A stretch of DNA of 64,000 nucleotides from a virus (IMGVR_UViG_3300031998_000007); one strand, 5' to 3'; positions 14,455 to 49,843 are shown, counted from the first letter of the stretch. The notes: generated by a model not told the origin, from the letters alone. Translations and numbers: made by a program.

Positions 14455-15549
14455 TCAGTACCCGTAACCCTGATATTCCACCCTGGAACGGGCCCCGGCG
14501 CCGTTACCATACCATTCCTCGATACGGTCCGGCTTCATCGGCTTCTGCCCGAGGAAGGTGCTCTTGTCACGCGCCTCGTGGAGCATCTGCACGATCTTGC
14601 GCCGGTCGTAGATGTCCGGGTTAATCCAGGTCACCGAATCGGGGCGTGCGTTCAGCTTGAGACACTGGCGCATGCACTTCTCGGCCATGCTGTAATTTTC
14701 CTTGTGATACTGATACTTTCCGCGCCAGTAGTAGCCTTCCGGGCGTGTCGGGCTTTCCTGGATAAGCTGGAGGGAACGCCTGCCAATCGTTTCCAGGTCG
14801 CGGTTCGTTTCCGAAATCTGGCATATCATTTCCAGGGACTTGACGCGCTCCTCGGTAAAGTTGTCGGGGAACTCGTCCACCGCGACGTTATACCATTCCA
14901 GCGCAGCTGGCACATTCTTCATGTCGCGATAGGAGTTCGCGATGTAGAACGCGGTCCTCGGCGTCCTCCCGATGTTCCAGTCGGAAAGCAGCGTCTTCAA
15001 GTTGCGGGCCACGTCGCGCGTGGGCTTGAAGTTCCTGATGAACAGGCCGGTATCGACGGTAGGCGGGTTCGGGGCACAGTTCTTGAGGAGCTCGTGGATG
15101 CGGCCCTCGAAACGCGCGTTGCAGCGCTTGCATATACGCAGGCGCGGGAAGAAATACTTCGGGCTCGTGCGGGTGTAGATGAAAATGCTCGCGTCGGGCG
15201 TCCTTCCCGTGATTACGGTAAACGCCTTGCGGAGACGGGCCGGTTCCTCGACGGTCTCGTTCGCATCAATCCACATCACGTAGTCCGCCGTGGCACGGTT
15301 GATGGCGTGGTTCTTCGCCGCGCCGAAGTCAAAGTTGCCGCTCGCATCATGAAAACGGCTGCCGACAGCATCGACAACCGTATCCTTCTTATTGCGGGCA
15401 GCCCAACCACGAACCAGTTCGACAGTCCCGTCAGTAGAACCCGTGTCCACGACGACGACCTGGTCGGCCACCAGCAGGACACTGTCCAGACACGACAGGA
15501 CCGTCCTCCGGCCGTTCTTCACGACCAGACAGACAGCCAGCGTAGCCAT
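14455..15549 (-). CDS. GT2 glycosyltransferase-like protein with TPR repeats
   Basis: LAVCLVVKN, VVVVDTGSTDGT, DFGAAKN, WIDANE, RFEGRIHE; C-terminal TPR-like helices (AFYIANSY, EGYYWRG). Confidence 0.85.
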   Translation of the reverse strand: MATLAVCLVVKNGRRTVLSCLDSVLLVADQVVVVDTGSTDGTVELVRGWAARNKKDTVVDAVGSRFHDASGNFDFGAAKNHAINRATADYVMWIDANETVEEPARLRKAFTVITGRTPDASIFIYTRTSPKYFFPRLRICKRCNARFEGRIHELLKNCAPNPPTVDTGLFIRNFKPTRDVARNLKTLLSDWNIGRTPRTAFYIANSYRDMKNVPAALEWYNVAVDEFPDNFTEERVKSLEMICQISETNRDLETIGRRSLQLIQESPTRPEGYYWRGKYQYHKENYSMAEKCMRQCLKLNARPDSVTWINPDIYDRRKIVQMLHEARDKSTFLGQKPMKPDRIEEWYGNGAGARSRVEYQGYGY

Positions 15550-15552
15550 GGG

Positions 15553-16089
15553 TTACCCCTTGTTTTCTTCCTTGGCAGGTTCTGCCGCTTCGGCTTCCTG
15601 CGGAGGATCCTTGATGAGAGGCTTGAGGAGGTTCCAGTAATACCAGTTCTGCTGTTCGTTGGTCCCAGCAAATTCCGGCACGCGTTCAAGTTCGATTGTG
15701 CGGAGGTCGAGCTCGATTTCCTCGTCGCAGAACTCGTTGCGGTTCTTGTCAATGATGACCTCGTTCTCGTAAGCCTCCTTGCACTCTTCGCGAAGGTCAA
15801 GGATCTTGCGTTCGAGCTCCTCACGGGCTTCCGGCGTTGCCGTCTGGAAGTCAGCCGGGGTATTGAACCCAAGTTCCTTCTGGATAGCGAAACGGCGCTG
15901 TTCGGCTTCAAGGAAAGCCTTGTCGGGCGGGAAGGCTTCCACCGTGTTCTTGCGTTCTTCGCCGGTGACCTTCAAGTTGTGGGTCACGAAATAGCGGAAC
16001 CATGCGCTGACCGGGGCCTTGAATACCTGGTCGGCATGTTCGAGCATGAGGTTGAGGTTGATTGCGTATGCGCGTTTTACCTTTTTCAT
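15553..16089 (-). CDS. Hypothetical helical protein (DUF1617-like)
   Basis: Start moved to MKKVKR at 16089 (GAGG RBS); EEIELDLRTIEL...LLKPLI pattern; family call is tentative. Confidence 0.5.
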   Translation of the reverse strand: MKKVKRAYAINLNLMLEHADQVFKAPVSAWFRYFVTHNLKVTGEERKNTVEAFPPDKAFLEAEQRRFAIQKELGFNTPADFQTATPEAREELERKILDLREECKEAYENEVIIDKNRNEFCDEEIELDLRTIELERVPEFAGTNEQQNWYYWNLLKPLIKDPPQEAEAAEPAKEENKG

Positions 16090-16143
16090 CGGTTTCCTCG
16101 TTTGAAACGTTTCATGCGGGAAAACTAGGTTTTCCCACACGGA

Positions 16144-18945
16144 CTAACTCGGAAGCGGATTACGCTCGAAGAAGTAGCCAACCTCGCCATTTGCCTTCTT
16201 GACCGACACTTTCAGGAATACGTTCTTGGACGACGCAAAGGTAGAATCGCCCCAGGTCTGCAGGTTGATACCCCGCGTGCCCATGGCAGGCGATGTGCCT
16301 TCGCTGGCAATAGATGTCCCGGTCATGGTCAAGCACTTGGCAGTCACATACGGAGTATATCCCGAAATCGAGCTCAGATACATGTACAGGTAGAATACCT
16401 TGCCTACGTCCGCCTCGCTCGGGTCAGCCAGCGACACATTAAGTGTGTTGTTGGTGTATGAAAGATGCAATATGCCCGGATCAATGACAATCATCTCGTT
16501 CGCTTTCGGCGTAAGCTGGAAGGACGGCGACATAGCCTCGGTGTAAGAATCACCGGACGGGGTCTTGGTTGCCGTTGTCGTGACACTGGTAACTATCGCG
16601 TTATCGGCCGTAGAAGTCGCCGTAGCGGAACCCGTAGTCGCGCTTTCATCAGGGTATGTCACCTTCGGGCTCAACTGCTGGATCTGCGACCCGTCATAGT
16701 ATTCCTGATACCCAATAGTCAGTGTCCCGACGTAGGAACATGTAAGTTTCCTGACATGGTCATACAACAAGGTGTTCTCGACAATGTTCACATCCAGCTT
16801 CGGGTAGCCCACGCCGATGTGGAACGAGCCGTCGAGTTCCTGGCGGTCCTGGACGATGAGCGACATGCCGGCATACGGACACTTGTCGGTGCCCGGGGTC
16901 ATCACGACAGCACCCTTGAACACGTTGCCCGTGCTCACCTTGCCGTCAAGGATACTCTTGATGTATTCCTCAGTCTTCAAGCGGCGATAATCCGCAGCGA
17001 CATAGCCGCTCGGGATCTGGTCATCCGGGGTATTGTCATGGTAATACATGTTACCGAGCTTCAATACGCCGTATGCAGACTGGTTCCTGGTGGAAGCATT
17101 TGCACCGCCATACAGGGCAAGACCGCCGGTATAAATCATCGGGGTGTCCGGCTTCTTGCAGTTATACCAGGCAGCCTCGGTAATGTAGCCGCTCACGCCA
17201 TCAAGGATATATGCGGAACTACCGGTTATCTGACTTTCACCAAAACCAAGGCTAAGCGCCTCGGACTTGGTCATGGTGCCATAGAACCTGCCGTTATACA
17301 TGAAGCCGGAATTGGTGAACACGAACGCATCGGTGAAACTCGGTGTCGCCTCGTTGGCGTTCATGTCAGACAGGCATCCGTTTTCACCACTGCCTTCGGT
17401 GTTATTGCGGTTAGTATCTATCCACCACACGCCGCGAATGATATTCTTGTCGATCACCTCATCGCCAACTTTCATCTTCTTCGGCCCGCCAATACGCATG
17501 TGGTTGGCAACAAACACGCTGTCAGAAATGGTGGCGGTATCAAAAATCAGCTGATCGCCCCACAGCACAACATTTTCCGCGCCATCGGGAAGAGTATTGT
17601 AATCGCCGATGGACAACACGTTCTTCTGATTTGCCGGGAAAATCTGGTACCATGACCATTCTTCGGTATACCAAAGGACTTCGCCATCCGCTGTCGTCTT
17701 ACGGTTCGAGTTGGCTACCGCATTAGACGACGCATTTCCTGCCCAGCCGATATACATACAGGTTGCGCTATCATGGGCCACGATTGAATACGACACGCCA
17801 CCGTGTGTATAGGTCAAATCATTGTCACCAACGACAATCGCGCTAATCCCCTGGTCCGCATCAATCCGAGCCTGGGCTTCTGCATCCGTCAGGATTTCAT
17901 AATTAGAATACATGCCGCGGGCATGATACTTCTGGCTTCCCGAACTTGACGGATATTGGTAATACTCATTAAAATGGTCGCCAATAACGTTGACATTCTT
18001 ACTGCCGGCCGCGATATAGTTAGTTGAACCGGTTACTTTGACCTTGCTCGAGTTGAACCCGACCCAGTTTTCGGTACCATTGACTTCAATGTCGCCCATC
18101 GTGAGGCGGTTAGTGGAACCCCCTGGCAGCTTGACGGTATATTCATTGAACCAGCCAATGTGGTTGTTGAAACCCCTGATTTTCAAACCATCAACGGACC
18201 CCCACATTTCGTTGCCGGTGCCCTTGATGTCAGAATTGAGCAAATATCCCGGCCAGCGAGGAACACCCATAGCGCTGCACCACTTCTGTTCGAGCGCACT
18301 GTAATCGTTCAGCACAATGCCGCCGAGCACCGACGTATCAGTCACCGAGGCGAGGCGGGAATCGCGGACGAGACCAACCAGGCCAAACGCATCCTTGACG
18401 AAAGAATCCACCACGGAACCCATAACATAGTGCGAGTTCTGGAGAACGGAGTCGTTGCCGAGCACATTCACATAACTGGAATTCGAGTCGATATACATGC
18501 TCGGACCGTTCGAATACGAATAGTCGGCCTCGCACATCGATCCGGCACCCATGCCCAGCGTATCTACGCCGACACCCGGACTATCGGAATGGTAGCCATA
18601 AAGCGGGTCAAATACGGCGCTCTTCGTGCATTCGAGATACTCGAAATCGCTTGCGCCGGTATTCCCCGGCAACGCCTGGATTTGGCCGACCAAGGTGCTT
18701 TCCACGACATCCGACGCGGAGCCGTAGATGTTCACCTTCACCAAGCCATCGGAAGTCTTGAAGTAGTAGTTGCCGGCAACATGGTCGCCATCATAAACCT
18801 TCGTCTCGCTCCCGACCTTGTACTTGACACCCATGTAAGAGACATCGGGAAGTATCTTACCGCTAAGTTTTCCCGTGTTGCTCTTCCCGACAAGTTCCTT
18901 GAACTCGGCGGTAGTCATCAGTGTTTCGGTGACGTCTTTATACAT
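16144..18945 (-). CDS. Putative tail fibre/spike protein, 933 aa
   Basis: Beta-helix-like G/N/S repeats (IKGTGNEM, IRGFNNHI, VNGTENWV, VTGSTNYI); lies in the tail run. Confidence 0.6.
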   Translation of the reverse strand: MYKDVTETLMTTAEFKELVGKSNTGKLSGKILPDVSYMGVKYKVGSETKVYDGDHVAGNYYFKTSDGLVKVNIYGSASDVVESTLVGQIQALPGNTGASDFEYLECTKSAVFDPLYGYHSDSPGVGVDTLGMGAGSMCEADYSYSNGPSMYIDSNSSYVNVLGNDSVLQNSHYVMGSVVDSFVKDAFGLVGLVRDSRLASVTDTSVLGGIVLNDYSALEQKWCSAMGVPRWPGYLLNSDIKGTGNEMWGSVDGLKIRGFNNHIGWFNEYTVKLPGGSTNRLTMGDIEVNGTENWVGFNSSKVKVTGSTNYIAAGSKNVNVIGDHFNEYYQYPSSSGSQKYHARGMYSNYEILTDAEAQARIDADQGISAIVVGDNDLTYTHGGVSYSIVAHDSATCMYIGWAGNASSNAVANSNRKTTADGEVLWYTEEWSWYQIFPANQKNVLSIGDYNTLPDGAENVVLWGDQLIFDTATISDSVFVANHMRIGGPKKMKVGDEVIDKNIIRGVWWIDTNRNNTEGSGENGCLSDMNANEATPSFTDAFVFTNSGFMYNGRFYGTMTKSEALSLGFGESQITGSSAYILDGVSGYITEAAWYNCKKPDTPMIYTGGLALYGGANASTRNQSAYGVLKLGNMYYHDNTPDDQIPSGYVAADYRRLKTEEYIKSILDGKVSTGNVFKGAVVMTPGTDKCPYAGMSLIVQDRQELDGSFHIGVGYPKLDVNIVENTLLYDHVRKLTCSYVGTLTIGYQEYYDGSQIQQLSPKVTYPDESATTGSATATSTADNAIVTSVTTTATKTPSGDSYTEAMSPSFQLTPKANEMIVIDPGILHLSYTNNTLNVSLADPSEADVGKVFYLYMYLSSISGYTPYVTAKCLTMTGTSIASEGTSPAMGTRGINLQTWGDSTFASSKNVFLKVSVKKANGEVGYFFERNPLPS

Positions 18946-18948
18946 TGC

Positions 18949-20691
18949 TTAACTCCTGGGGGTGCCATGCACCGTGAAGAACTGGATTTTGTTTTGTGCG
19001 GAACGCTCGGAAACCTGCGTCGCCGTGTACAATGACTGGTTGAACGTATCGAATATGCTAAAGTCCACGGGAAGACTCTCTACCGCGCAGTCAACTCCGC
19101 GGACAGCGCCTGGGTTCACCGTGCCGTCAACCAAATTTTTCATGAAGTTGTGGGTGTGGTTCTTCGGCGCATACTCGTCACCGGAGTCATCGTTCTGGCA
19201 TCCGTTTACGCCCGCGGTCATGCGGTCCATGCGCTGCTTCATGATGGCCATGTCGAGGCCCACATCAGTGATGGCCTCCGCCTGGCTTGCCGTAGCGATG
19301 AGCTGGTTCTCGTACCAGGTTATCGCATTGTCCTCATACATGTTGTAGAAGACGGAAGCGTCGCGGATAACGGACCCGGTGTCCTTGTCGCCCAAGTTGA
19401 GGTCCACGTTTACCTTGTAGGTGCTGGTCTCGCCAGAACCTTCACGGAGATACACCGTCGTATCGAGGTCAACCACGGCAAACAGAATCGGCTCGGCATT
19501 GCCGTCGATTTCGAACTGCACACGGAAATCCTCACAACCGCTGCGATTTGTCGCATTGTTTTCGGACTTGTAGAAACGGTGGACAGTCATCTTCGCAGCA
19601 TAGATGCCGATACGGTTGAACTTGATGCTGCTTTCCTTGGTCTGGAACAGGTCGGCCCCGCCGATACTGGTAATTCCACTTGTACCCGACTGAGTAATAG
19701 CGCGAGTGGCAACCGTATTGTAAATGTCATCGAGTGACATGTTGATGCTGAAACGGAGCGTGCTGGCAATCTTCTTGCCAGGAAGGATGGAGGATGCCCC
19801 TTCCTTCGCGTTCACCACCTTGTAATGGCTAATCGGGAAGAGCCTCGTCACCTTCGCCATGTTGCGACAGGACGGTTCGTAATCGACCAGGAACCCCTCG
19901 GAACTTGCCGGGGCATGATAACGGTTGTAGTTGGAAATCGACTTGAACTTCCAGTATTGTTCACACAAGCAGTTGTAGTCCGGTTCCAACGGCTGGGTCG
20001 GATCGCCGTTCAGCCCATCCTGGGTGTAGGTCTTGTTGGCGGACAGCCACTGGCGGGTGTCCACGCCATTCACGGCAGCGTTGAACGGGTCACCGCCTTC
20101 CGGGACAGTGGCAGTCTTGCCGATATAGGCGCGGGTGTCCGTAGTCACGGCAGGCAAATCGCCATTCTTCGGGTAATCCGCGAAATCTCCCATGTCCTCA
20201 GCGGTCGCGGGCGGATTGTTGAACGGTTCGGCACCATCGGTAAAGAACAGCGGGGCGGGAAGCGGAAGTCCCGTCAAGTCACCGTCCGCACCAACGCCGC
20301 GGAAAACGCACGCGCCGGAAACGTCGGAGGCGGAACTGTCAGTAGTCCCGCGGAACATGACGAGGTTGTTGTTCCCGTTCTTGTCGAGAACATAACGGAA
20401 GCGGGACATCAGGTTGGACGTGTACATCGCCACGCCGCCAAGTTCCGCGGCGGACGTGCCCTGCGCATAGCCGCCCGCAACCATCGAACCCTGCCACAGG
20501 TTGTAGATGTGGTCGCCCTTCTTCGTGAGCGAAGTCATGGTGGCTTTCAGCTCATCGTCCTTGCCCTCCATGCGTTCTTCTGCCGGGACAAAGGCGAGAC
20601 CGTAATAGCCAATCCAATAGGTATCACCGCCGGCCTGCGGCACGGTGTTAAGGAGGTCCAAGCCTGCTTTCGTGATTACGGTACTAGCCAT
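18949..20691 (-). CDS. Tail-collar fibre/baseplate protein (DUF3751-like)
   Basis: MASTVITKAGLDLL N-terminus, FNRIGIYA...ILFAVV, C-terminal YAPKNHTH; start moved to 20691 because 20718 abuts the promoter motif. Confidence 0.6.
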   Translation of the reverse strand: MASTVITKAGLDLLNTVPQAGGDTYWIGYYGLAFVPAEERMEGKDDELKATMTSLTKKGDHIYNLWQGSMVAGGYAQGTSAAELGGVAMYTSNLMSRFRYVLDKNGNNNLVMFRGTTDSSASDVSGACVFRGVGADGDLTGLPLPAPLFFTDGAEPFNNPPATAEDMGDFADYPKNGDLPAVTTDTRAYIGKTATVPEGGDPFNAAVNGVDTRQWLSANKTYTQDGLNGDPTQPLEPDYNCLCEQYWKFKSISNYNRYHAPASSEGFLVDYEPSCRNMAKVTRLFPISHYKVVNAKEGASSILPGKKIASTLRFSINMSLDDIYNTVATRAITQSGTSGITSIGGADLFQTKESSIKFNRIGIYAAKMTVHRFYKSENNATNRSGCEDFRVQFEIDGNAEPILFAVVDLDTTVYLREGSGETSTYKVNVDLNLGDKDTGSVIRDASVFYNMYEDNAITWYENQLIATASQAEAITDVGLDMAIMKQRMDRMTAGVNGCQNDDSGDEYAPKNHTHNFMKNLVDGTVNPGAVRGVDCAVESLPVDFSIFDTFNQSLYTATQVSERSAQNKIQFFTVHGTPRS

Positions 20692-20715
20692 CTGGGCTGC
20701 CCAATTAAACTCGTC

Positions 20716-20765
20716 CATAGTTTATAAGTCGCCGTCCGCCAAAGGCAACCCGTTTTATAAACTAT
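20716..20765. promoter_or_regulatory. Second divergent pair of putative late promoters
   Basis: TATAAACT on minus at 20719-20726 and on plus at 20756-20763. Confidence 0.7.
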
Positions 20766-20789
20766 CAAGGAAATACCCAGAGTTTCAGC

Positions 20790-21293: not shown

Positions 21294-21310
21294 CCCTACC
21301 CAATTTCAAG

Positions 21311-21527: not shown

Positions 21528-21539
21528 ATCCTAAATATA

Positions 21540-21605: not shown

Positions 21606-23102
21606 TTACCAGTTGCCGCTTTCCTGAGTGAGGCCCGCCGGAGCGTTCACGAGCGCGTTGGACTGGAGCTCGTAGGAGAGACCCGGTTCGAGGCTTGCAC
21701 CGAGAGATGCGTTGCTTTCCCACGGGTTGGCGGTCACGTCGAAGCCAGCGATCACAGAGTTCATGTTGAGGAACTGAACCATGCGGTAGAACTGGCCGGC
21801 GCCGAGGAGGTTGGCGATCACGGCGTAACGGGACTTAACGATCAAGCGCGGAGAACCGTCTTCCTGACCGGCCGTCTTCACGAAGATGTACGGAATGTAC
21901 GGCATCATAATGATTCCGGATTCACCCTGGTTCTGACCCTTGAATCCCACGAGGGCGTAGGAAACGCTAGAGTAGATGTCCTGGTACATCTGGATACCGA
22001 CCGGGAGCTTACCGATGTTTGCAACACCACCGGCCGGCTGGTTGGTCATATCCTGCATGTTGCCGTTGAAGTAGATTGCACCCTGAACGGTAGAGATTGC
22101 AGCACCGACGTCCGGGGACACGATGGCAAAGTTACCGCAACCCATACGGGTCGTGAGGGAGATCTTGCGGCTCACAGCGATGAGGGTGGAGATGATGCCG
22201 GAAGCGATGCGTTCGGCAGGCCAACGACCCTGGGCAGGACCGTTGTTCACGATGGCGAGGTCAACCACGATCGGCTTTTCACCACCGAGGGCCGGGTTCT
22301 GGGCAACGATGCACATGGCCATGAGGATTTCACGGTCCTGTTCCTGCTGCACTTCGAACTGGAGAGCTTCGAGGAGGAGAGCTTCCACGTCCTGGCCATG
22401 GCCGGCAGCCATGTCTTGCTGGAGTTCGAGCGTGTAGTGGCTCTTGATTGCGCGAGTACCTACGCGGTAGGCACCGGAAATCACCTTGACAGAGGCCTTC
22501 TTGATGTTGTAGGAGTAACCACCGAAGGAGTCATCCCCATCCATCTGCTGGCCGGCAAAGCGACCGAAGTTGTTGAAGAGCTGGCCACCCGGTTCCTGCG
22601 TAGCAGCGAAGCCGTTGGCACCGCGGGCGCGACCGTAGATGTCAGTGCCTTCCGAGTAGTTGGAAAGCATTTCACCTGCGCCGGTAGACCACGGGTTCAG
22701 GAAGCCTGCGAAGGAAGTGTGGTCACCGACGAGGTCGTAACCAATTTCCTGCTTCTGGCCCTGACGGAAGGCAACGGACTTGAGCGGTTCGTTGTCATAC
22801 AGGTAACGAAGGGCGAAGTAGATGCCGTTCGGGGTCGTAGTCGGGATCACGCTGACCGTGTTCATGGCCAGGAGTTCCTGGAACTTACGACGGATCATCG
22901 GGAGGGCATACTGTTGGTACTGGGCAACGTCAGACGAGACGTTGGCACCTTCGGTAAGCACACCCTTGTTGCACTTGTTCTGGTTTTCGCACATCACAGC
23001 AAGGATGCTGGCTTCAGTGCGGGTCTTCGGAGCCGGACCCATGTTGCTTTCGAGGAAAGCACGCCACTTATGGGTAAGGCTGTTCTTCACTGGATTCTGC
23101 AT
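21606..23102 (-). CDS. gp23: Major capsid protein, T4 gp23-like
   Basis: LPMIRR, GIYFALRYLY, TRAIKSHYTLELQQD, DREIL, GNFAIVSPDV, PYIP, KSRY motifs. Confidence 0.95.
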   Translation of the reverse strand: MQNPVKNSLTHKWRAFLESNMGPAPKTRTEASILAVMCENQNKCNKGVLTEGANVSSDVAQYQQYALPMIRRKFQELLAMNTVSVIPTTTPNGIYFALRYLYDNEPLKSVAFRQGQKQEIGYDLVGDHTSFAGFLNPWSTGAGEMLSNYSEGTDIYGRARGANGFAATQEPGGQLFNNFGRFAGQQMDGDDSFGGYSYNIKKASVKVISGAYRVGTRAIKSHYTLELQQDMAAGHGQDVEALLLEALQFEVQQEQDREILMAMCIVAQNPALGGEKPIVVDLAIVNNGPAQGRWPAERIASGIISTLIAVSRKISLTTRMGCGNFAIVSPDVGAAISTVQGAIYFNGNMQDMTNQPAGGVANIGKLPVGIQMYQDIYSSVSYALVGFKGQNQGESGIIMMPYIPYIFVKTAGQEDGSPRLIVKSRYAVIANLLGAGQFYRMVQFLNMNSVIAGFDVTANPWESNASLGASLEPGLSYELQSNALVNAPAGLTQESGNW

Positions 23103-23288: not shown

Positions 23289-24980
23289 CTACCCTAACGG
23301 CGGTGCTCCGGCGCCTTCGCCACCCCCTCCGGCTTCGCCTTCGCCTTCGGCAGGGGCCTCGCCGGCAGCCTCGGCCTTCTCGCGGGCCAGCCATTCGGCG
23401 TTCTTCGTGTATTCGTCGTCGTTGAGACGGAGACCGTACTTCAAGGCGAACTTCTTGGAAAGCGGCGCATCCGGTTTTTCCTTGGAGATGGTGTTGTCCA
23501 TCATCTTCGAGAACGTTTCGAGGCGGGAACCCCACACATCGGCGTCGATGAAGTTCTGGAAGCCGTTGGAACGCCTGAACTTCACGCTGAAATTCTCGCG
23601 GACCTTGATGTCGTCGTTGTATTCCTTGTGGGTTTCGAGCACCATCACGAACAGTCGGATCATGATGTCCTCGACCGGCGCCTGATACTTCTGCACCAGC
23701 TTGGCGAACGAGACTTCGGCCTGAGTGACTTCGCCAATCTTGCCGTTGGAGTAGTTGTTGCTGTCCCCGGCAAGCGCGGTGATACGGCCCGGGGGCACCA
23801 TCATCGAGTTGACGAGGTTGCGCTTGAAGAATTTCAGGTCGTCGATGTTGCCGAGCTGCTCGCCGCCCTGCATCCTCTCGATTGTCGAACCGGTACGGCC
23901 CTTCGCGAGGGACACGAGATAGTGCTCCGTAAGGCCCACGACCTTGCCGAAGTTCGTAATCTCGCCAGTCATCGGGTTGTAGTCGAGGTGGCGGGAGAAC
24001 TGCTTGGCCTGATCCTTCATGAACTTTTCGGCCTGCATGCGGTTCATGCCCGACGTATCAATCTTCATCATCAGCTTCTCGGAACCCCAGAGAACGCGAT
24101 ACATGACCACGCTGTCCTCGATGGTGTTGAGTTGATTGTAAGGCTTCATGGCCGGTTCCAGGATGGAACGGGTGTCGTTGATGCCGCCCGGACCATACAT
24201 GCCGAGGGAGGCATAGAGGATCTGGTTCGGCGAATAGTCGATGTAGTTCTTTCCGCCCGTCTGGGAGAAGGCCGCGCCGCTCAACATCTGGCGGAAGCCG
24301 ATGATGAGGTTGTTCTGGTAGATAATGACCATGTTCTCCTCGGGGAGCATGTTCAGGCCGACTATCTGCCGGGTCTTCGGGTCATAGATGATTTCGTAGA
24401 ACAGGCGCCCGCGGGTGAGCAAGTAGCGCATCTGTTCCGCGCCGACACGGCGGAAGTTCATGATGCGGCGGAGGACTTCCTGCCGGAAGATGCGGCAGAG
24501 TTCCTTCTTGACCGGATCGCCCACGGCGAGGTCCTGGTCGATTTCAAGCGAGCAGATGTCGCCGATGTCGTCCTCATAGACCGCCTCGTTGCAAATCTGG
24601 ATGAGGGATTCGTTCACCTCGGCACGCTTCGCGACCGTATCGTATTTGAGTGCGCGTTCCACGTTCTTGCGCCAGAACAGGTTGACCTGGTTCTCGGCGA
24701 CCGCGTTCTGGAACTGCTGCGGGTCGAACCTCTCGTCGGAGAAGTTGTAGGCCGGAGTGTATGTGCTGAACCCGTCGGTCGCGCTGCCGTTCGGGTATGT
24801 CATCTGGGTGATACCTTCGCCGACAGTATTCTCGGCGGCAGTCACCTCACGTAGTCTGTCTTCCCTGTTGAAAAGACGTTCAAATACGGCACCCTTCGGG
24901 TTGCCGATGCCAAAGTCCCTGGCATGCTTCAAGACCTTGGTACTCCAGGTCTCTCTCGGTTTTTCGGGTTGCGTCAGCAT
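23289..24980 (-). CDS. gp20: Portal protein, T4 gp20-like
   Basis: ICNEAV, GRLFY, NQLNTIEDSVVMYR, IDTSGM, GGEQLGNIDDLKFF, EVSFAKLV motifs. Confidence 0.92.
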   Translation of the reverse strand: MLTQPEKPRETWSTKVLKHARDFGIGNPKGAVFERLFNREDRLREVTAAENTVGEGITQMTYPNGSATDGFSTYTPAYNFSDERFDPQQFQNAVAENQVNLFWRKNVERALKYDTVAKRAEVNESLIQICNEAVYEDDIGDICSLEIDQDLAVGDPVKKELCRIFRQEVLRRIMNFRRVGAEQMRYLLTRGRLFYEIIYDPKTRQIVGLNMLPEENMVIIYQNNLIIGFRQMLSGAAFSQTGGKNYIDYSPNQILYASLGMYGPGGINDTRSILEPAMKPYNQLNTIEDSVVMYRVLWGSEKLMMKIDTSGMNRMQAEKFMKDQAKQFSRHLDYNPMTGEITNFGKVVGLTEHYLVSLAKGRTGSTIERMQGGEQLGNIDDLKFFKRNLVNSMMVPPGRITALAGDSNNYSNGKIGEVTQAEVSFAKLVQKYQAPVEDIMIRLFVMVLETHKEYNDDIKVRENFSVKFRRSNGFQNFIDADVWGSRLETFSKMMDNTISKEKPDAPLSKKFALKYGLRLNDDEYTKNAEWLAREKAEAAGEAPAEGEGEAGGGGEGAGAPPLG

Positions 24981-40987: not shown

Positions 40988-42610
40988 CTATTTCTTGCTC
41001 TTCTTCGGTGCCGGCGCGGCCGGGGCTTCGACGACAGGGGCAGGCGTCTCGGGAACCACCGGGTCGATGACTACCGTCACCGGTGCCTTTTCCTCGTGGG
41101 TTTCCTCGATTGCCGCGATGGCTTCCGCACTCGGCATATCGTCGTCCGCACCGAGCGCGTCAAGGGCCTTGTCGAGGGCTCCCTGCTCGCCGCTGGAAAG
41201 GATGTCCATGGGGAGGTCGTCTTCGGCGGCCTTCTTCTGGACCTGCTTGCCGGCCTTCTTCGCGGCACGGTTCTCGCGGGACTTCTTCTGCGCGGCAGCA
41301 CGCTTCGCGTTGACTTCTGCAAACCGGGCGTCGTTCTGCTCGATTTCCTTTGCGGACATGGCCTTTTCCTCGGCTTCCTCAAAGGCACCGACTGCCTTGG
41401 CGATGACATCGTCCGTGATGACGCCGGTCCTGATGTCAAGGACCTTCAACGCAGCGGCCATGCGGTCGAGGGTCACTTCGGCGATGCCCGTAATCTTGGA
41501 GATTTCCTTGACAGAGCGCCCGTCGTCAATCAGTTCCTGCACCTGGCGATACACCGGGGAGCTGTCGACGATGGTCTGGCGTTCCCTGTCGAAGGCGGAG
41601 AGGAGGATGTCCTGGTTGAACTCGATGCCGCGGGCGTTCAGGTATTCGACCACGTCCTCGTAGTAGTTGCCTTCGAGGATGAGCTGGTCGAGCTTTGCGC
41701 GGGTGATCGGGAGACCCGGCAGGTTCACGTCGAACAGCGTGTCGGTGCGGGCGGGGCCGTTCTTCACAGCGTCGGCTGCCTCGTCGAAGTCAGCCGGCTT
41801 CGTGAAGAGCGTTTCGGACTCTTCCACCACCGGTGCGCCGAGAAGGAACTTGCGGAGGTTCTGCATGGAGAGGTCGAGCTGGGTATAGCCGACCGGGCGT
41901 TCCTCACCAACCGCATAGTTCATTTCCTTGTCGGAAAGCACCGCGTATTTGTAAATACGCATCGCGTAGTTGAGGGAGTTGAAACCGTTTGCGTTGACCG
42001 CGTCGAGCGCCTGCTTCGTGAGACGGGCTCCGTTGCCGTCAACCCATTCAGCGCAAGTAGGCTGGATAGGACCGGCAAGGGGCTGCATGCCCATGCGATC
42101 ATAAAGGAAGAAGGTTTCGCCACCGAACAGTGTCTTGCCGCTCGGGGCGACCTTGCCCTGCGGGTTCGGACGCGTGTGGGTAAAGCAGTCGATGACGGAT
42201 CCTACGCGGTTCGGCATCGGATTCTTGGCGCCCATATAGACGAAATAGCCGGTGATTGCCCTGCTACGGGTTCTCATACCGGCTATCTGGATATAGTCCT
42301 TGAGCGAACGCACCTGGTGGAAGTCAATCCACACGTATTCGTTGTCCATGAGGCAGATGCACCATTCCGGGCTCTTGCGCTTGGAAAGGTGGTCGGCCAC
42401 AATGTCACGGCGCTTGGTCCAACCGCCCTCTATGCGAGGCATGAGGCGCACCTTGTCGCCATAACGTTCGCAAATGCCATCAATCCAGGGACGGTTCCCC
42501 GAATCATAGACATAGACACAGTCAAAACCGAGGGCCAGGTGGAAATCCAGCCACTCGGTAAGTTCTAACGGGCGTTCACCCGATACGTGGAGAAGACAGT
42601 TAAGGTACAT
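40988..42610 (-). CDS. GT92/GT2-like glycosyltransferase domain fused to an HTH and a low-complexity tail
   Basis: LTEWLDFHLALGFDCVYVYDSG; WCICLMDNEY; HTH GRSVKEISKITGIAEVTLDRM; K/A- and E/P-rich C-terminus. Confidence 0.7.
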   Translation of the reverse strand: MYLNCLLHVSGERPLELTEWLDFHLALGFDCVYVYDSGNRPWIDGICERYGDKVRLMPRIEGGWTKRRDIVADHLSKRKSPEWCICLMDNEYVWIDFHQVRSLKDYIQIAGMRTRSRAITGYFVYMGAKNPMPNRVGSVIDCFTHTRPNPQGKVAPSGKTLFGGETFFLYDRMGMQPLAGPIQPTCAEWVDGNGARLTKQALDAVNANGFNSLNYAMRIYKYAVLSDKEMNYAVGEERPVGYTQLDLSMQNLRKFLLGAPVVEESETLFTKPADFDEAADAVKNGPARTDTLFDVNLPGLPITRAKLDQLILEGNYYEDVVEYLNARGIEFNQDILLSAFDRERQTIVDSSPVYRQVQELIDDGRSVKEISKITGIAEVTLDRMAAALKVLDIRTGVITDDVIAKAVGAFEEAEEKAMSAKEIEQNDARFAEVNAKRAAAQKKSRENRAAKKAGKQVQKKAAEDDLPMDILSSGEQGALDKALDALGADDDMPSAEAIAAIEETHEEKAPVTVVIDPVVPETPAPVVEAPAAPAPKKSKK

Positions 42611-42648: not shown

Positions 42649-44025
42649 CTAGAAGGACACACCCGGGCCCGAGAACATGTCGATGTTGTCGAAGTCCACG
42701 AGCTCCTGTTCGCTGACCTTGTCGCCCAGGGTCGGCGCCTCCTTGCGGTAGACATCGGCCTTGAAGATGGACGGATCGCGGTCAACGTCGGCCTTGTTGT
42801 TCAGCAAGTAGAACCCGAAGGAACGCAACTGCTTCACCGTGCTCGCCCTGGCGGAGGAAATCCCGGTCATCTCGATGGGACGCTCGTCGGGGACTTCCGG
42901 TTCCGGGGCAGAAATCGCCTCGGTGATGTTGTCCTTGACATCCTGTGGGACCATGCTGAGGTCAATCAGGGTCCTGTTGCGCATATACTGGTCCGCCCAG
43001 CCGTTCTCCTTGGCCACGTCGTAAACCGCGGCGCAGTTTTCGAGCAGCTTGATTGCGGTCGGCTCGCCCAGCTGGTTCGCCTTGCCGGGCTTGAACTTGC
43101 CGGTCTTCTCGTCAACGAACGCCATGCCGGAAATGTTATCGGACGTATCGCCCGAGAGCACCTTCGCGTCGAGGTATGCCTTCGGGTACTTGCATACGGT
43201 AAACGTTTCCGACACATGGTTGAAGATTTTGAGGTTCGGGAGGTCAATCTGGCTCAAGTCGGAATCGCGGGTGATGATGATTACGTCATCGCAATGCGGC
43301 GCATACTTCATGGCGGAGGCATAGACAATGTCGTCACCTTCCGCGCAATCCACGCCGATTGCCCGCGCACGGAACACCGGGGCGATTTCCTTCGCGAACT
43401 CGTCCTTGTAAGACATCCAGTAGGACTTCTCCACGAAGAACGGCCAGTCCTTGCTCTTGCGCTGTCCCTTGTATGCCGGGAGAATGGGCTTGCCGGAATC
43501 CGTGGTGATGCCCCACAGCATCTCCTGCTTCTCCTTCGGGAGCTTGCCGAGCTTGCGGTGCGCGGTAATCTTCGTCGGATCCTGCAAGAACTCGCGGTCC
43601 TTCGCCTTGATGGGTGTCACCTCGAAATTCTGGCCACCGTCCTCGTCCGTGGACAGGAGCCTTACCGCGTATGCGTAGTTGTCCGCGCACACGTAATAGT
43701 ATTTCTTGTCCACATAGACGTCGGCATGCTCGGCGTAATAGTCCTTGACGAACTGCTTGCGCCACGCATGCTTGCCTTCGAGGGCGAAGATGAGCTGACG
43801 CGGGTTGAACAGCGCGATATAGTCAAGGACGCGCTGGAACATCATGTTACGCCACCTGAGAAGTTCGTCGTCCGCACCCATAAGTCCGAGGGTCTTCTTG
43901 GCAGCGGGTGTCTTCATCGAGAACATCAGGTGGTACGACAGGGAAGCCCAGTCGATAATGACCAGGCGGTTCCCCACATACGGGTACGACGTCACCCTCG
44001 GCTCTGTCAAATACCCGGGCTGCAT
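42649..44025 (-). CDS. rnh: T4 RNase H-like 5'-3' exonuclease
   Basis: IIDWAS, EGKHAWR..YKGQRK, EGDDIV, ITRDSDLSQ, GDTSDNI, RNRTLIDL. Confidence 0.9.
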   Translation of the reverse strand: MQPGYLTEPRVTSYPYVGNRLVIIDWASLSYHLMFSMKTPAAKKTLGLMGADDELLRWRNMMFQRVLDYIALFNPRQLIFALEGKHAWRKQFVKDYYAEHADVYVDKKYYYVCADNYAYAVRLLSTDEDGGQNFEVTPIKAKDREFLQDPTKITAHRKLGKLPKEKQEMLWGITTDSGKPILPAYKGQRKSKDWPFFVEKSYWMSYKDEFAKEIAPVFRARAIGVDCAEGDDIVYASAMKYAPHCDDVIIITRDSDLSQIDLPNLKIFNHVSETFTVCKYPKAYLDAKVLSGDTSDNISGMAFVDEKTGKFKPGKANQLGEPTAIKLLENCAAVYDVAKENGWADQYMRNRTLIDLSMVPQDVKDNITEAISAPEPEVPDERPIEMTGISSARASTVKQLRSFGFYLLNNKADVDRDPSIFKADVYRKEAPTLGDKVSEQELVDFDNIDMFSGPGVSF

Positions 44026-44459
44026 TACTTGATCCCCGTGCTGCCGAAACCACCGCGGTCAGTGCCTTCGAGACGGCATTCTTCAAAGACGAGCTTCGGC
44101 TGGTTTTCCATGATACGGAACTGGGCGATGCGGGCACCCTTTTCGATGGTCACGTCGCGGGTTGCGTAGGCCGGGAAAATCCACCAGTCGTTCGGGCCGC
44201 AGTAGCTGCAGTCGATGAGACCCATGGAGTTAGCCTGGAGCACGCCGTAGTTCTTGAAAGTGGAGCTGCGCGGGATGACATGGGCTTCGAACCCTTCCGG
44301 GAGCTTCATTGCGACACCGAGCGGAATCTTCGCGAGTTCGCCGGCCTTAATCGTAACGGTTTCTGCCGCGGCGAGGTCAATCCAATCGGACTTCCCATCG
44401 ACATATTCGAGACGCTTGATGCTGTCATTGAGATACTGAATTTTAATCTGCTTAGTCAT
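44025..44459 (-). CDS. dut: Trimeric dUTPase
   Basis: [30 protein letters not shown]. Confidence 0.95.
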
Positions 44460-44460
44460 C

Positions 44461-46284
44461 TTAGACTACTCCTTGTTGTTGGAATGGATTTAGGAAAAAT
44501 TTCTTCTTGTACACGCTGCCGGATGCCTGCTGCTTGCCCTTCGCCGCTTCCTTCTTCGCCTTGGCAGCCTTCGCTGCCTCGATGGCCTTCAAGATGCGCT
44601 CCATGACATCCTCCTCGGTGATGTTCACGCAGTAAACGCCTTCGAGGTCGATACGGTTCACCGGGATCTTGTCGGCATCGTAGTAGGACTTGCGGAACTT
44701 GGCGAACTGACGCAGAAGTCCGTTCATCTGGAGCTGCGCAGGTTTCCCGCGCCACGGACGGCCCATGTAGGATGCGTCGTCAATCAGGTCGAACACCCTC
44801 GCAAGCGGCTTGGCCGGATGCTTGCGGACAATACGGCCGATGGACTGCACCACCATGTAGGGGCTCTTTGCAGGATCCGCCATGATGAGGTTATGAAGCA
44901 GCTTGATGTTCACGCCCTGCTGCATGCAGCCGTAGGTCGCGATGATGATGTTTCCCGTGCTCGCCTCGATGGACTTGCGAATTTCCTCGCGTTCGTCTGT
45001 CGGGACGTCGCCCTTGATTACGTAATACTTGAACTCCGGGTGGCGCTCCTTCAGGAAGCTCATCACCATTTCCAGATTGTCGATGTAGCGGAACAGGATA
45101 ACCGTGTTTTCCGCAGTCGTAATCTTCCCGGCACGGATAAGCATGTCGATGATGTCCTTGCGGGAGCTGTTCTCCGTGGCCATGTCGAACTCGGTATCGT
45201 AGTGCATGCTCTTAATCTTCGGGCGGAGCTTGGGCGGGTATGGGATGAACACCGCCTCCACCTGCACCGGGGTAAGGATGCCCTTCTCCACCAGTTCATG
45301 GAGATGGACAATCTCCTCCTTGCGCCCGAGACCGCTCTCGATATAACCGGCATCAAGGCCGTCGTCCGGGAGGGTTCCCGACACGCCAACCTTGAAGTTG
45401 TTGGCGTTCTCGCACAGGGACAGGATTTCGCGCAGCTTCTGACCTCGGGTGGAGTGGGCCTCGTCCACAATCACGGCATCGAACACCTCGAAAAAGGACG
45501 CTCGCTTGTTCTGCAACGTCTGCCAGGTTGAAATTGTAATCGGTTTCAACTTGGCCTCTTCGCCGAGGTTGAGCGCTTCCAGGCGTGCCTTCTCGGACTT
45601 CGTCAACTTGTCCGTCGACGTCGAGTGCAGCAACGTGCAATACAGGCCGGCATGGTCCCATCCGTAGTCATCATGGAAGTCGCTAAAAAGCTGTTCCACG
45701 AGGTTAGTGGACGGGACGATTATGAGAACACGGCGACGGTGCTCGCGTTCGAGCAGATACCGGGCAATAATCATCATAGAAAGCGACTTTCCCGCGCTGG
45801 TGCATGCCAGCAAGGAAATGCGCCTTCCGTTAATAGCACGGGTCGCAAGCCTAATCTGGTGGTCATACGGGACGAGCGGCTTGCCGGTCTTCGCGTTGTG
45901 GATATTCAGGGTACTCGCATAGGAACGGATGGCTTGCTCCGTCACCGGCCCATGCGGCGGTCTGAACATGTCGTCGATTTCCTTGGCGAGGCCAATCTTC
46001 ACGCCGACACCGAACTCGGTGCGCAGCAGCTTTGCCACACGCGGGATAAGGCCGACAGGAAGCATGCGCGTCTTGCGGTCGAAAAATTCGACCACACACT
46101 CGTGCTTGCTCATACCGAGCGACTTCGCCATGAAGCCCTTGCCCTCGTCATAGAACTGCATCGAGGTATAGACGTAGTTGTTGACCCTGTTCAGGTCCTG
46201 AACGGAACTGCCGTAATAATCGACGCGGCAGTTGAACGCGTCTGCTGGAACAAACATGACTGTCACCCTGGACGTCAGGCTCAT
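44461..46284 (-). CDS. uvsW: UvsW-like SF2 DNA helicase
   Basis: [41 protein letters not shown]. Confidence 0.92.
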
Positions 46285-46757
46285 TCAAGGACCCCCATAT
46301 CGGAGCAGAGTTCACGGATCGTCTTTTCGACCGTCTCGTCGTTTCCAGCGTCGAACACGGACTTGCGCACGAGATAGAACATCTTGCCGGCATCTGTATT
46401 CAATCCGACGAGGACCGCCTTGTAGCGGTGGCCGACAGCCAGCTTGTTGTCGGTGTCGTTGTAGATGTTCAGCGGCATGGCCGTCTTGGCCTGCTTCGCA
46501 TAGAGCACCAGGAGGTCGGCCACACATCGGTTCACACAGGATTTTCCGGCCTCCTGGATTAAAGTTGTCAGAACTTCAGGCGGAAGCGTCTCGCCTTCGC
46601 CACCGGCGAGCTCGGCCTCAATAGTGATTTCATACTGCGGCTTGCCGTCGGCAATATACGGACGCGGAGTTACCGACACCACGGCATCGGGCTTCGAGAT
46701 ACCCTTCCTGGCATTGCGGACTCCATACACCTCGATGAAATGGGAAGACCTGTTCAT
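46281..46757 (-). CDS. Hypothetical protein (158 aa)
   Basis: GGAGG RBS; ATGA overlap with uvsW. Confidence 0.7.
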   Translation of the reverse strand: MNRSSHFIEVYGVRNARKGISKPDAVVSVTPRPYIADGKPQYEITIEAELAGGEGETLPPEVLTTLIQEAGKSCVNRCVADLLVLYAKQAKTAMPLNIYNDTDNKLAVGHRYKAVLVGLNTDAGKMFYLVRKSVFDAGNDETVEKTIRELCSDMGVLE

Positions 46758-46765
46758 GCGGCCTC

Positions 46766-47611
46766 CTAGCGAACCATGTCAATATTTGCAATCGTAGCAG
46801 CTTCGGACTCGACCGTTCCGATATACACCATAATCGGCTGTCCGCCGGCACCCGGGATTGACGCATAGGAACATAGTGCCATCTGGCCACCGTTCGCGCC
46901 CGGGGCGTAGCGAAGTTCTACCGTATAGTCCATGCCCATCGAGTCCATAATCTTGAACATCTCGATCGGGAACATGCGGAGAACCGAGTTGGCGTAGGCC
47001 TGCTTGATGATTTCTGTATCGACTGTAATGTTCGGGTACGTGTAGTCGAGGTCAACCTGCTGGCCGACCGTGCCGCGGAGGGTCACTGTAATCTTGTTCT
47101 CGTAGCAGGTAATGGTCACGTTGTCGCAACCCGGAGCCAGCTTGCGGCTCCTGAACAAATCCTTGATTGCGTCCTGCGTAAGGCTCAACTTGCCGGCGAG
47201 CGCGAGCGGGTTTTCTTCCGGCATCGCCGGGATGTCCTTGCTGTCTTCGGTAAAGAAGGCCAGGTCCACCATGCGGCAGCGAAGCGTCTTCTTGTTGCCG
47301 ATGAACTTCACGAAGTCGTATGCGTGGCCGGACATGGAAATTTCGCGCACTAGGCTGATTTCGCCACCCTTCGGGTAGCCGATTGCGGTGACATAGTCAT
47401 TGAACTCGCGCAGCGAGGAAAGGCCAATCATCTCGCCTTCATAGTTGAAGTCATCGGGCGATGCCGCGATGTGGAAAAGCAGGCCGTTCTTTGAATAGGA
47501 CAAACGGGAAAACCCGTCTTCCTTGAACAGAAGGACCGGTGTCTGCGGCAAGGCCTTGACAACCTTCTGCAAGACCGCATAAAATTGTTCCGAAAATGTC
47601 AATGATGCCAT
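46766..47611 (-). CDS. gp45: Sliding clamp, T4 gp45-like
   Basis: LTFSEQFYAVLQKV..IGLSSLREF pattern parallels the gp45 N-terminus; size and replication context fit; start moved to MASL. Confidence 0.6.
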   Translation of the reverse strand: MASLTFSEQFYAVLQKVVKALPQTPVLLFKEDGFSRLSYSKNGLLFHIAASPDDFNYEGEMIGLSSLREFNDYVTAIGYPKGGEISLVREISMSGHAYDFVKFIGNKKTLRCRMVDLAFFTEDSKDIPAMPEENPLALAGKLSLTQDAIKDLFRSRKLAPGCDNVTITCYENKITVTLRGTVGQQVDLDYTYPNITVDTEIIKQAYANSVLRMFPIEMFKIMDSMGMDYTVELRYAPGANGGQMALCSYASIPGAGGQPIMVYIGTVESEAATIANIDMVR

Positions 47612-47665
47612 GGTTCGTCTCGTTTCAATTTTTATGAAATATAGCAAAAAATACAGTTAAGGTCA

Positions 47666-49843
47666 TCACTTGTGCCGATAAAACTTGATTAGGAGGTCCT
47701 CGATGCGGTTCCATTCCAGTGTTCCGGGCTTTATCGGCTGGTCGGCGCACATGGAGCAGTCAACCGGGATCTGCACCAGCTTCAAGCCCATTCGGCTGAG
47801 GACCATCGAAACGACCGCGGCCATCATACGCTGGCCGACATCGCCCTCAACCAGCGGCGAGAACTGGCGCAAGTCGCCGAGGACATCGCCATAGATGCCG
47901 CGGACGGCGATGAACGGGCCGTCGAGGACAACAACCTGATGCGAGCCGTTCACCGAACGCTTGCCCATTACCCACTCGCTAGACTTCAAGTCCGTCGGGA
48001 ACGTCGTGTAGATGCCGTAGGAGGGGCCGTCAACCCACGACCCGTTATGCAGGAAATTCTCGTAGCCGAAGGCGCCGACGGCAGCGACATCCGGCGGGAC
48101 GGCATCCAGCTTCTCCGGGAACCCCATGTCGTTGATGACGGTGTTCCCGCCGACAAGCACATACCACGCAGGGGGGACCGCCGGCTTGAACGAAATCACC
48201 TTGTCATAGGCATTGGAAACCAGGCTAAACGAGTTGGACTGCTCCTTGTCCGACTTTACCGGCAGATACAGCTCGGGCGACCTGACCACATAGGCGTCCT
48301 TCTCGGGCATGCGGTCGGTAAACATGCCCGACGAGTAGCCAAGCGTGTGAACGACATAGACATTCAGCGGGACCTTCGACGTCTGCAACAGCATCTTCGG
48401 CGTCACGCGCTCGCGTTTCGGGGTGATGCCCAGTATCTGGCGCAGTTCGTTCTGCTCCTTCTCCGCGGCATGCGCCTTCTTGCGTTCTTCCCTGTACTTG
48501 GCGTCGCGTTCCAATGCGTTCCTTTGCAGGGATGCCTTGATGCCGAGTTCAATCGAGTTCTTCCTGATCGGGAGAGGCGCCTCCGGTGCATGCTCCTTCG
48601 CGTCTTTCGCCTTGCGCTTCATCGTCCTTCGCATGCCGGCCGCAATCTTCGTCCTGATGCTCTCTTCCTTGGACTGGGTAAGCTGCCTGACCCCGTGCGG
48701 GTGCCGGTGGACACCCTCGCGGGCATCGTCGATTTCCGGGATGGTGTGCATCTCGGGGGAGGCCTTCACGATAGCTTCCACGGCAGGCTTGTGATACCCG
48801 TAGATGAAAGGATACTGGTCCGGCTTTCCTACATAGTTCTTACGAAATTCTGCCTGCGTCATCACATACCGGCGGGTCGTGTAGACGTCGCACTTGCCGA
48901 CGATGAACTCGTTCACCCACCCGACGGTGCGGTTGAACTTCGCGCATATCTGGGCAGGCGTGTAATAGCAGGAATGTTCCCCGTATGCCTTCATGCACCA
49001 TTCGCGCATATACCACCGGTCCATGCTCTCCCTGGTGTAGTAGCCCGGACGGCCGGGGACGCCTTCGAGGTGTTTCGTAATCTTCTTGAACTGCCACACG
49101 CTCCGGCGCATGTACATCGCCGCGAGCTTTACCGGAAGCGCATCGGGAAGCGGGTTCCTGCGGAAAGTCTTGCGGCAGTTGTCCAGCCACGACGCAAGGT
49201 CCGACTTGGTTATCTTGCGGCGGGCGCCCTTGACACCCTGGACGCGATGGACCGGCATCACCCCGCGGGTAAGCGCGGTAGTGAACGCGGCAGTGTCCTT
49301 GTAGCCGCAGAAAATCGCGGCCTCGCCGGACCCCAGGGGCTGGCTTCCTATCCACCGGAGACTGTCCGGGAGGAAGTAACTGCGGAGGAACTTGTCATAT
49401 TCGCCCATGTACACATACAGGTATCGCTCGCCAGGCCTGCGGTGGGGCGTGATGCGCCCGAGCTTGATCTGCTTGTAGAAGTTCTTCACGTCCACCCCGG
49501 TATCGGCAACGAGCGTGTCCACGTTCACCTCGGCCATCGGGTGGTCCGGGACCTTCACGGTGAACCCTCGCCGATACATCTCGGCCACGACCTGCTTCCA
49601 CAGGTATGCCTTCGTCCGGTTCTGGCAGACGATATAGTCCACGCTGGCAAGCAGCCCGAGCTCGGCCAGAAATTCCTGGCTTATGCCGAACACCTTCGCA
49701 ATGCGACGGGCGGTGAGATACTCGTCGTCACCAACGCGGGAGACGTTCTCGAAATTGGTGAACGAACCATACTGCACCTCGAACTTCACGAGGCGCTTGC
49801 GGACTCCCAACTTCATGTTTGCGATAGTAGTCTTTGCCGGCAT
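47666..49843 (-). CDS. Multi-HTH (Xis/MerR-like) protein fused to a degenerate GT-A domain
   Basis: About 5 HTH-like repeats (YLTARRIAKVFGIS, LGSGEAAIFCG, YYTPAQICAKF); C-terminal VAAVGAFG...VVVLDGPFIAV resembles Glyco_tranf_2_5. Confidence 0.6.
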   Translation of the reverse strand: MPAKTTIANMKLGVRKRLVKFEVQYGSFTNFENVSRVGDDEYLTARRIAKVFGISQEFLAELGLLASVDYIVCQNRTKAYLWKQVVAEMYRRGFTVKVPDHPMAEVNVDTLVADTGVDVKNFYKQIKLGRITPHRRPGERYLYVYMGEYDKFLRSYFLPDSLRWIGSQPLGSGEAAIFCGYKDTAAFTTALTRGVMPVHRVQGVKGARRKITKSDLASWLDNCRKTFRRNPLPDALPVKLAAMYMRRSVWQFKKITKHLEGVPGRPGYYTRESMDRWYMREWCMKAYGEHSCYYTPAQICAKFNRTVGWVNEFIVGKCDVYTTRRYVMTQAEFRKNYVGKPDQYPFIYGYHKPAVEAIVKASPEMHTIPEIDDAREGVHRHPHGVRQLTQSKEESIRTKIAAGMRRTMKRKAKDAKEHAPEAPLPIRKNSIELGIKASLQRNALERDAKYREERKKAHAAEKEQNELRQILGITPKRERVTPKMLLQTSKVPLNVYVVHTLGYSSGMFTDRMPEKDAYVVRSPELYLPVKSDKEQSNSFSLVSNAYDKVISFKPAVPPAWYVLVGGNTVINDMGFPEKLDAVPPDVAAVGAFGYENFLHNGSWVDGPSYGIYTTFPTDLKSSEWVMGKRSVNGSHQVVVLDGPFIAVRGIYGDVLGDLRQFSPLVEGDVGQRMMAAVVSMVLSRMGLKLVQIPVDCSMCADQPIKPGTLEWNRIEDLLIKFYRHK

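Follow-up and report, generated by a model that had tools for sequence, protein, structure and literature searches.

Glycosyltransferases (GTs) of the GT-A fold canonically carry a DxD motif, the second Asp of which binds the metal ion, and in many of them a C-terminal His serves as the third metal ligand. According to a survey of GT-A families, the DxD motif and the C-terminal His have been lost repeatedly and independently, COSMC being a true pseudo-GT (PMC7185993). Two enzymes with an Asn-substituted motif have been characterised: the Legionella protein LtpM has a conserved DxN, transfers glucose in a cation-independent manner and is inactivated by the Asn-to-Asp change (PMC6393602), and BoGT6a belongs to a clade with NxN throughout, is metal-independent and contacts the diphosphate through Lys/Arg (PMC3961637). 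Here we describe GT-A proteins encoded by a 64,000-nucleotide stretch (hereafter the window) of the viral record IMGVR_UViG_3300031998_000007, for which an initial annotation had proposed a convergent Asp-to-Asn change at the DxD motif of three unrelated GT-A domains. The main finding is a phage clade of family GT2 enzymes with tetratricopeptide repeats (GT2-TPR) in which both putative metal ligands are replaced by Asn and fixed in that state. The best overall explanation, to which we give a probability of roughly 55%, is that the three domains represent three separate stories within one jumbo T4-like phage lineage, as set out below protein by protein.

The first protein, P0001 (364 amino acids, positions 14455 to 15549, minus strand), matches Pfam Glycos_transf_2 (7.5e-14; 52.4 bits with a cut-off of 23.3, and 53.9 bits when the genome was searched), TPR_2 (6.9e-10) and PHROG 13126 (8.7e-28). 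Its nearest solved relatives among the PDB sequences, as searched with HMMER, are the GT2+TPR proteins GmaR (1.9e-10) and SunS (3.5e-6), and P0001 resembles them in sequence and in the succession of a GT-A domain and TPRs. The available text of the GmaR structure paper mentions neither a DxD nor a metal. The codon at 15259 to 15261 specifies N97 in the motif W-I-D-A-N-E, so that D95-A96-N97-E98 stands in place of DxD[DE]; in the HMMER alignments N97 lies directly opposite the second Asp of IDADE in GmaR and of IDADN in SunS, and P0001 thus lacks a canonical DxD with a metal-binding second Asp. The C-terminal His of GT-A enzymes is missing as well. In its column, where relatives outside the clade mostly have His (as in I-x-H-x-G-Y) and every clade member has Asn, P0001 has N173 in I-R-N-F (codon 15031 to 15033). 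Other elements of the active site are retained: D35, in D-T-G-S-T-D, and H152-E153 (codons 15091 to 15096) are invariant in the clade and common to the DxD relatives, and would correspond to the nucleotide-binding Asp and to the xED-like catalytic acid, respectively. With the HE motif in place, P0001 does not show the loss of both motifs seen in COSMC.

A search of 5.8 billion proteins returned 97 relatives of P0001, of which 21 form one clade with it (22 sequences, 32-98% identity). D35, D95, N97, H152, E153 and N173 are invariant in all 22. No hit was obtained in IMG/VR with the single P0001 protein as query, but the clade alignment did retrieve loci there, nine of which (L002-L010) all have DxN plus Asn in the N173 column. 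The motif D-x-N-[DE] and the Asn in the His column are therefore present in every clade member, 22 from the protein databases and nine from IMG/VR, and the conservation of Asn in phage orthologues, which the initial annotation had suggested checking, extends to N97 and N173 alike in 31 diverged sequences. Outside the clade, Asp is kept by about 145 relatives; 74 of 76 database relatives have it in the N97 column, as do 68 of the other 72 aligned viral segments from IMG/VR, the remaining four having Gly (3) or a gap (1) and none Asn. In a quick tree of 98 sequences, a branch with a Shimodaira-Hasegawa-like approximate likelihood ratio (SH-aLRT) value of 99 separates the DxN group from all other sequences, and thus one change suffices to account for it. 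Both AAC and AAT are used for N97 within the clade and the neighbouring codons vary synonymously; a single transition would restore Asp at this position, yet it was never seen in the clade. Two further residues, K175 and R178, are nearly invariant within the clade and absent from the same positions of the GT2-TPR alignment outside it. Judged from this pattern of conservation, N97 and N173 are fixed under purifying selection, as expected of a re-tuned active site rather than of decay. The clade provides a clean natural experiment, in which the putative ligands appear to have been swapped once and long frozen, while the sister groups retain Asp and His.

We propose that P0001 is a glycosyltransferase of the SunS/GmaR type in which Asn has taken the place of both protein ligands of the metal, namely the second DxD Asp and the C-terminal His. 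The double replacement would have been a single early event in the phage clade, subsequently held by purifying selection; the Asp and the HE motif presumed to serve nucleotide binding and catalysis remain in place, as does the first Asp of DxD. If LtpM (DxN) and BoGT6a (NxN) are taken as a guide, sugar transfer would most likely proceed without a divalent cation, and the clade-specific K175 and R178, beside N173, are candidates for neutralising the diphosphate. P0001 would thus be an active and probably metal-independent enzyme, and no dead copy. Active enzymes with such motifs, the commonness of which among family members the initial annotation had regarded as decisive against its own proposal, do exist, but only outside GT2 and GT92.

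The gene order around P0001, namely ORFs (open reading frames) of 589 and 933 amino acids, one of 195 amino acids, the GT2-TPR gene and ORFs of 1157 and 618 amino acids, is kept in six related contigs. The block lies downstream of the capsid gene and close to the tail fibre gene. The acceptor of P0001 would likely be a virion or assembly protein, because the gene is part of a syntenic late/structural block and belongs to a protein-glycosylating subfamily. Glycosylation of virions by phage GTs has been reported in mycobacteriophages (cited in the available text of PMC12619734), and the location of the gene in a conserved structural block of large uncultured phages would point to glycosylation of virion proteins beyond that group. 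The 195-amino-acid protein (15553 to 16140, minus strand), which is acidic and without a family match, is encoded directly upstream of the GT2-TPR gene with a gap of 3 nucleotides; it is kept at this site in all relatives and apparently internally duplicated in one of them (L009:8949-9995). The 589- and 933-amino-acid ORFs (16144 to 20718) correspond in relatives to single ORFs of ~1400-1700 amino acids (L004:4846-9408, L003:4227-8714), the pair being either split here or fused in the relatives, and only the 589-amino-acid part is well conserved.

The second protein, P0002 (40988 to 42610, minus strand), combines a GT92-like GT-A domain (residues 1-270, 41801 to 42610) with a helix-turn-helix (HTH) region. 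It matches Pfam Glyco_tranf_2_4 (PF13704) with 1.6e-7 and 32.1 bits (cut-off 27.5), as do 28 of 28 members of its family, and PF01697 is matched by only one relative (1.2e-3). The AlphaFold model has a predicted local distance difference test score (pLDDT) of ~85-95 over residues 1-270, and compares best with the GT92 enzyme GalS1 (Z 15.9), other GT-A structures reaching Z values of ~10.5. N90, in L-M-D-N-E, is encoded at 42341 to 42343. When the N-terminal domains were aligned with hhalign, M88-D89-N90-E91 was placed opposite D95-A96-N97-E98 of P0001 (E 3.4e-4), whereas hhalign run on the full-length sequences of both families, GT92-like and GT2-TPR, produced a spurious match only. P0002 therefore does not have a D-x-D-E motif, and N90 occupies a column that is labile in its family: 28 database sequences have D14/H8/N5/T1, and with the Asp of three IMG/VR relatives the count becomes D17/H8/N5/T1 (n=31). 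At least four changes are needed in this column on the family tree, Asn being limited to the four-member subclade of P0002 and to one separate sequence. The first position of the motif is similarly variable (S14/D11/M2/E1, n=28), the column of the nucleotide-binding Asp holds D, N or S, and the residue following N90 is always acidic (E20/D8). Nevertheless, E19, W20, H24, D30, R135, D141, H145 and R147 are invariant in the family. P0002 would thus carry an Asn at a position that drifts between D, H, N and T, in a protein with many other polar residues held invariant; to judge from this, it probably still binds a ligand or catalyses a reaction, with its use of the metal relaxed or altered.

These observations bear on a second explanation, according to which the enzymes still depend on a metal, with the carbonyl oxygen of Asn, the acidic residue E/D98 (E91 in P0002) or water as ligands, and the substitution tunes the affinity or preference for the metal. 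In every member of the GT2-TPR clade the residue immediately after the Asn is acidic, and the corresponding column of the GT92-like family is E or D throughout, as given above; moreover, the GT92-like column alternates between Asn, Asp and His, the last of which is a good ligand, and in several GT-A families water or a different residue makes up for the loss of the C-terminal His (PMC7185993). The acidic residue is however equally present in the DxD relatives, hence it is no new compensating ligand, both protein ligands of the GT2-TPR enzymes became Asn together, and both characterised Asn-substituted enzymes, LtpM and BoGT6a, are metal-independent. We consider continued metal dependence unlikely on balance.

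The third protein, P0003 (47666 to 49843, minus strand), has an array of approximately five winged HTH units of the Xis/MerR type (residues ~40-360, 48764 to 49726), followed by a coiled coil and by a majastridin-like GT-A domain (residues 488-725, 47669 to 48382). In the model, a strand-helix-helix unit recurs about five times and is followed by a long coiled coil and a C-terminal domain predicted with confidence (pLDDT ~85-93), and an exhaustive HMMER search yielded 32 cluster representatives as relatives. HTH_17 is matched by 15 of 30 relatives (best 1.9e-7). Among the Pfam GT families none matched P0003 itself, and PF13712 (Glyco_tranf_2_5) was matched by only one of the 30 relatives (2e-4). 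The fold of the C-terminal domain was instead recognised by comparison with the majastridin structures 2nxv and 2qgi (Foldseek E 3e-5), with Z scores of 16.8 (212 aligned residues) and 16.3 (202 aligned, root-mean-square deviation 3.6), as compared to 12-14 for other GT-A structures. A GT-A fold is thereby borne out for all three proteins named in the initial annotation, by Pfam for P0001, by Pfam and the GalS1 match for P0002 and by the majastridin match for P0003, and translation likewise confirms the Asn codons of N97, N173, N90 and N567.

The proposed Asp-to-Asn change does not hold for all three. N567, in V-G-G-N-T (codon 48143 to 48145), follows strand 560-565 of the model, and its column contains T15/S7/N4/M3/L1 in 30 members. 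Since Asp never occurs in this column across the family, there has been no Asp-to-Asn change in P0003, and the claim stands for P0001 and P0002 only. The same gradation applies to the placement of the Asn at the second DxD position, which is direct for N97 and significant by hhalign for N90, while the alignment of the P0003 domain with the GT2 or GT92-like profiles is non-significant (E 0.26). The xED-like column (Q636) is unconserved (E14/Q5/R4/P3/D2/M1/Y1), and D572 and R648 are the only invariant charged residues of the family. Compared to COSMC, P0003 thus has a DxD column that is never acidic and an xED-like column that is mixed, both positions being taken from a weak alignment. P0003 would represent a family without DxD or conserved catalytic base, in which a GT-A fold is tethered to DNA, and is most likely a non-catalytic GT-A fold, the only good candidate for a pseudo-GT among the three.

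The initial annotation had gone further and seen in the three proteins a set of full-length pseudo-GTs, which could be lectin-like binders, dominant-negative decoys of host envelope GTs or metal-independent enzymes. In its strict form, this view has all three catalytically dead and serving as binders of the lectin type, as such decoys or as scaffolds. The canonical second Asp is indeed missing in all three, COSMC is a precedent for a pseudo-GT with neither DxD nor xED (PMC7185993), and neither motif is conserved across the P0003 family. GmaR, which is the closest PDB relative of P0001 by sequence, is moreover described in the available text of PMC9638930 as an antirepressor that binds MogR. 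As a description of the whole set, this explanation appears doubtful. The invariance of the nucleotide-binding Asp, D95 and H152-E153 together with N97 and N173 is unexpected for a non-catalytic binder, the known GT-A enzymes with DxN and NxN are active, many charged residues, D141, H145 and R147 among them, are invariant in the GT92-like family, and nothing connects any of the three proteins to host envelope GTs. The proposal thus fits P0003 but is unsupported for the set.

Several points nevertheless weigh against the explanation by three separate stories. The carbonyl oxygen of Asn can still coordinate Mg or Mn, and E/D98 is conserved in DxD and DxN proteins alike. The equivalence of the N173 column to the metal-binding C-terminal His of the GT2-TPR subfamily is suggested by position and conservation. 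The synteny with structural genes is only suggestive as a clue to the acceptor of P0001. As GmaR illustrates, a GT2-TPR protein can also be a protein-binding regulator. Finally, the placement of N567 at the DxD position and of Q636 at the xED position is weak, as it relies on the non-significant alignment and, for N567, also on the position relative to the secondary structure.

A further possibility is true convergence, in which a selective pressure shared by the phage proteins, for example metal scarcity in the infected cell, drove the three substitutions. The lineage has retained all three proteins as a group, and the GT2-TPR clade and the P0002 subclade each record an independent Asp-to-Asn event. 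The ages of these events are very different, however: the relatives G001, G003 and G004 have DxN in their GT2-TPR protein but D-D-D-E or E-D-D-E in the GT92-like protein, and S-S-S in the P0003 homologue. Because relatives with a DxN GT2-TPR protein keep Asp in the GT92-like protein, the three motif states are uncoupled and, as read from the alignments, arose at very different times. In addition, the third family never had the Asp, and another GT-A protein of the same record keeps D-G-D. A single convergent phenomenon, as envisaged in the initial annotation, is thus largely refuted by the phylogenetic distribution, and we regard it as highly improbable.

Regarding the DNA-binding-type modules, the HTH region of P0002 (residues ~350-395, 41426 to 41563), which precedes a K-rich and acidic tail, is helical in the model and has weak matches to HTH proteins of the ArsR and GerE types (E 0.1-0.6). 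A search of the PDB sequences with the P0002 and P0003 family profiles found no glycosyltransferase and weak HTH matches only. Both atypical GT-A proteins (40988 to 42610 and 47666 to 49843) are fused to modules of this kind, and both genes lie in a replication/recombination cluster with adjoining genes for a gp46-like protein, a 5'-3' exonuclease, a helicase and a primase, the P0002 gene being placed between the gp46-like and the 5'-3' exonuclease genes. Two HTH/GT-A fusions in a replication module are an unexplained architecture. Glycosylation of hydroxymethylated DNA bases by these fusions was considered and is unsupported, as no PF00303 (thymidylate-synthase/dCMP-hydroxymethylase) gene was found in this record or in two relatives that are >90% complete. 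In a bolder version of the explanation, the lineage would have fixed a metal-free GT2-TPR protein glycosyltransferase, by the paired Asp-to-Asn and His-to-Asn changes, for its own virion or assembly proteins, and would in addition possess two DNA-tethered GT-A-fold proteins in the replication module, possibly nucleotide-sugar-sensing or DNA-directed factors and not ordinary transferases; taken as a whole, this version is speculative and rather improbable.

The source record is a 213-kb IMG/VR virus, ~56% complete according to CheckV. The GC content is ~57%. The window contains genes for a T4-type major capsid protein (gp23, 21606 to 23102), a T4-type portal protein (gp20, 23289 to 24980) and a tail fibre (6675 to 8438); it further encodes a primase, a gp32-like protein, a DnaB-like helicase, a 5'-3' exonuclease and a helicase, and the phage also encodes an SbcC/gp46-like protein. 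It belongs to a jumbo T4-like lineage. No match and no close relative was found among the INPHARED phage records, searched with DNA and protein, whereas relatives ~350 kb in size and >90% complete exist in IMG/VR. All three GT-A-fold families occur together in G001, G003 and G004 and are conserved across the related ~350-kb phages examined.

The initial annotation had stated that only the GT at position 3567 keeps a DDD motif. This is correct within the window, where the small protein P0004 (3567 to 4229, plus strand) has A-D-D-D; it is a possible GT-A protein, suggested by an Atlas feature search that related it with 0.99 to viral clusters automatically named GT family 2, which is a lead only, and it has no match in Pfam or PHROG. 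Elsewhere in the record, a further GT-A-like ORF of 302 amino acids (L089:1192-2100, equivalent to G000:C1:160627-161535, minus strand) has intact I-D-G-D and W-G-G-E-D motifs and a sub-threshold match to PF00535 (17.5 bits), and the phage thus also has a DxD-bearing GT-A. Adjoining P0004, a 325-amino-acid ORF (4226 to 5203, minus strand) shows a sub-threshold match to Radical_SAM (25.6 bits, cut-off 29.5). The available text of PMC12619734, published in 2025, describes the 'moraphages' as a lineage of large phages from aquatic habitats that share four putative glycosyltransferase orthogroups as core genes, and the lineage studied here, which has four or more GT-like genes and whose relatives measure ~350 kb, might be identical to them or resemble them.

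When the two atypical proteins are compared to known systems, the N-terminal domain of P0002 has its best structural match in the GT92 galactan synthase GalS1 (8d3t/8d3z), with 214 aligned residues and a root-mean-square deviation of 3.5. The identity is however ~10%, and P0002 differs by its M-D-N-E motif, by its fusion to an HTH region and a charged tail and by its location in a phage replication/recombination cluster. Similarly, the C-terminal domain of P0003 is best matched by majastridin (2nxv/2qgi), the product of ORF6 in the atp operon of Rhodobacter blasticus, but with ~11% identity; the P0003 family has no acidic motif at the DxD position, and the domain is joined to five HTH units and a coiled coil. 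COSMC (C1GALT1C1), a pseudo-GT of family GT31 with a GT-A fold, neither DxD nor xED and a scaffold or chaperone role, is a model for what P0003 could be. The two are not homologous; COSMC arose recently by duplication of an active enzyme, while the phage family of P0003 is old and stands by itself.

P0001 shares with the S-glycosyltransferases SunS and ThuS and with the flagellin O-GlcNAc (O-linked N-acetylglucosamine) transferase GmaR the order of an N-terminal GT-A domain and C-terminal TPRs, and with SunS and GmaR the D-T-G-S-T-D, D-x-[DN]-[DE] and H-E motifs. In contrast to these proteins, both the second Asp and the downstream His are replaced by Asn in the phage clade, whose gene sits in a block of phage structural genes. 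With LtpM, the clade has in common a D-x-N instead of DxD that is conserved among homologues, but LtpM belongs to the PaTox-like lineage of effector GT-A enzymes without TPRs, and metal independence, which was measured in LtpM, is a prediction for P0001. In BoGT6a, a GT6 enzyme of Bacteroides ovatus, the Asn-substituted DxD is likewise fixed in a whole clade; this enzyme is however of the retaining GT6 type and has both Asp residues replaced, whereas the GT2-like P0001 keeps the first. The resemblance of P0001 to both would be one of mechanism and not of homology. With precedents for an Asn-substituted DxD available in GT6 and in a Legionella effector family, an example from GT2 would show the generality of the Asn route to metal independence.

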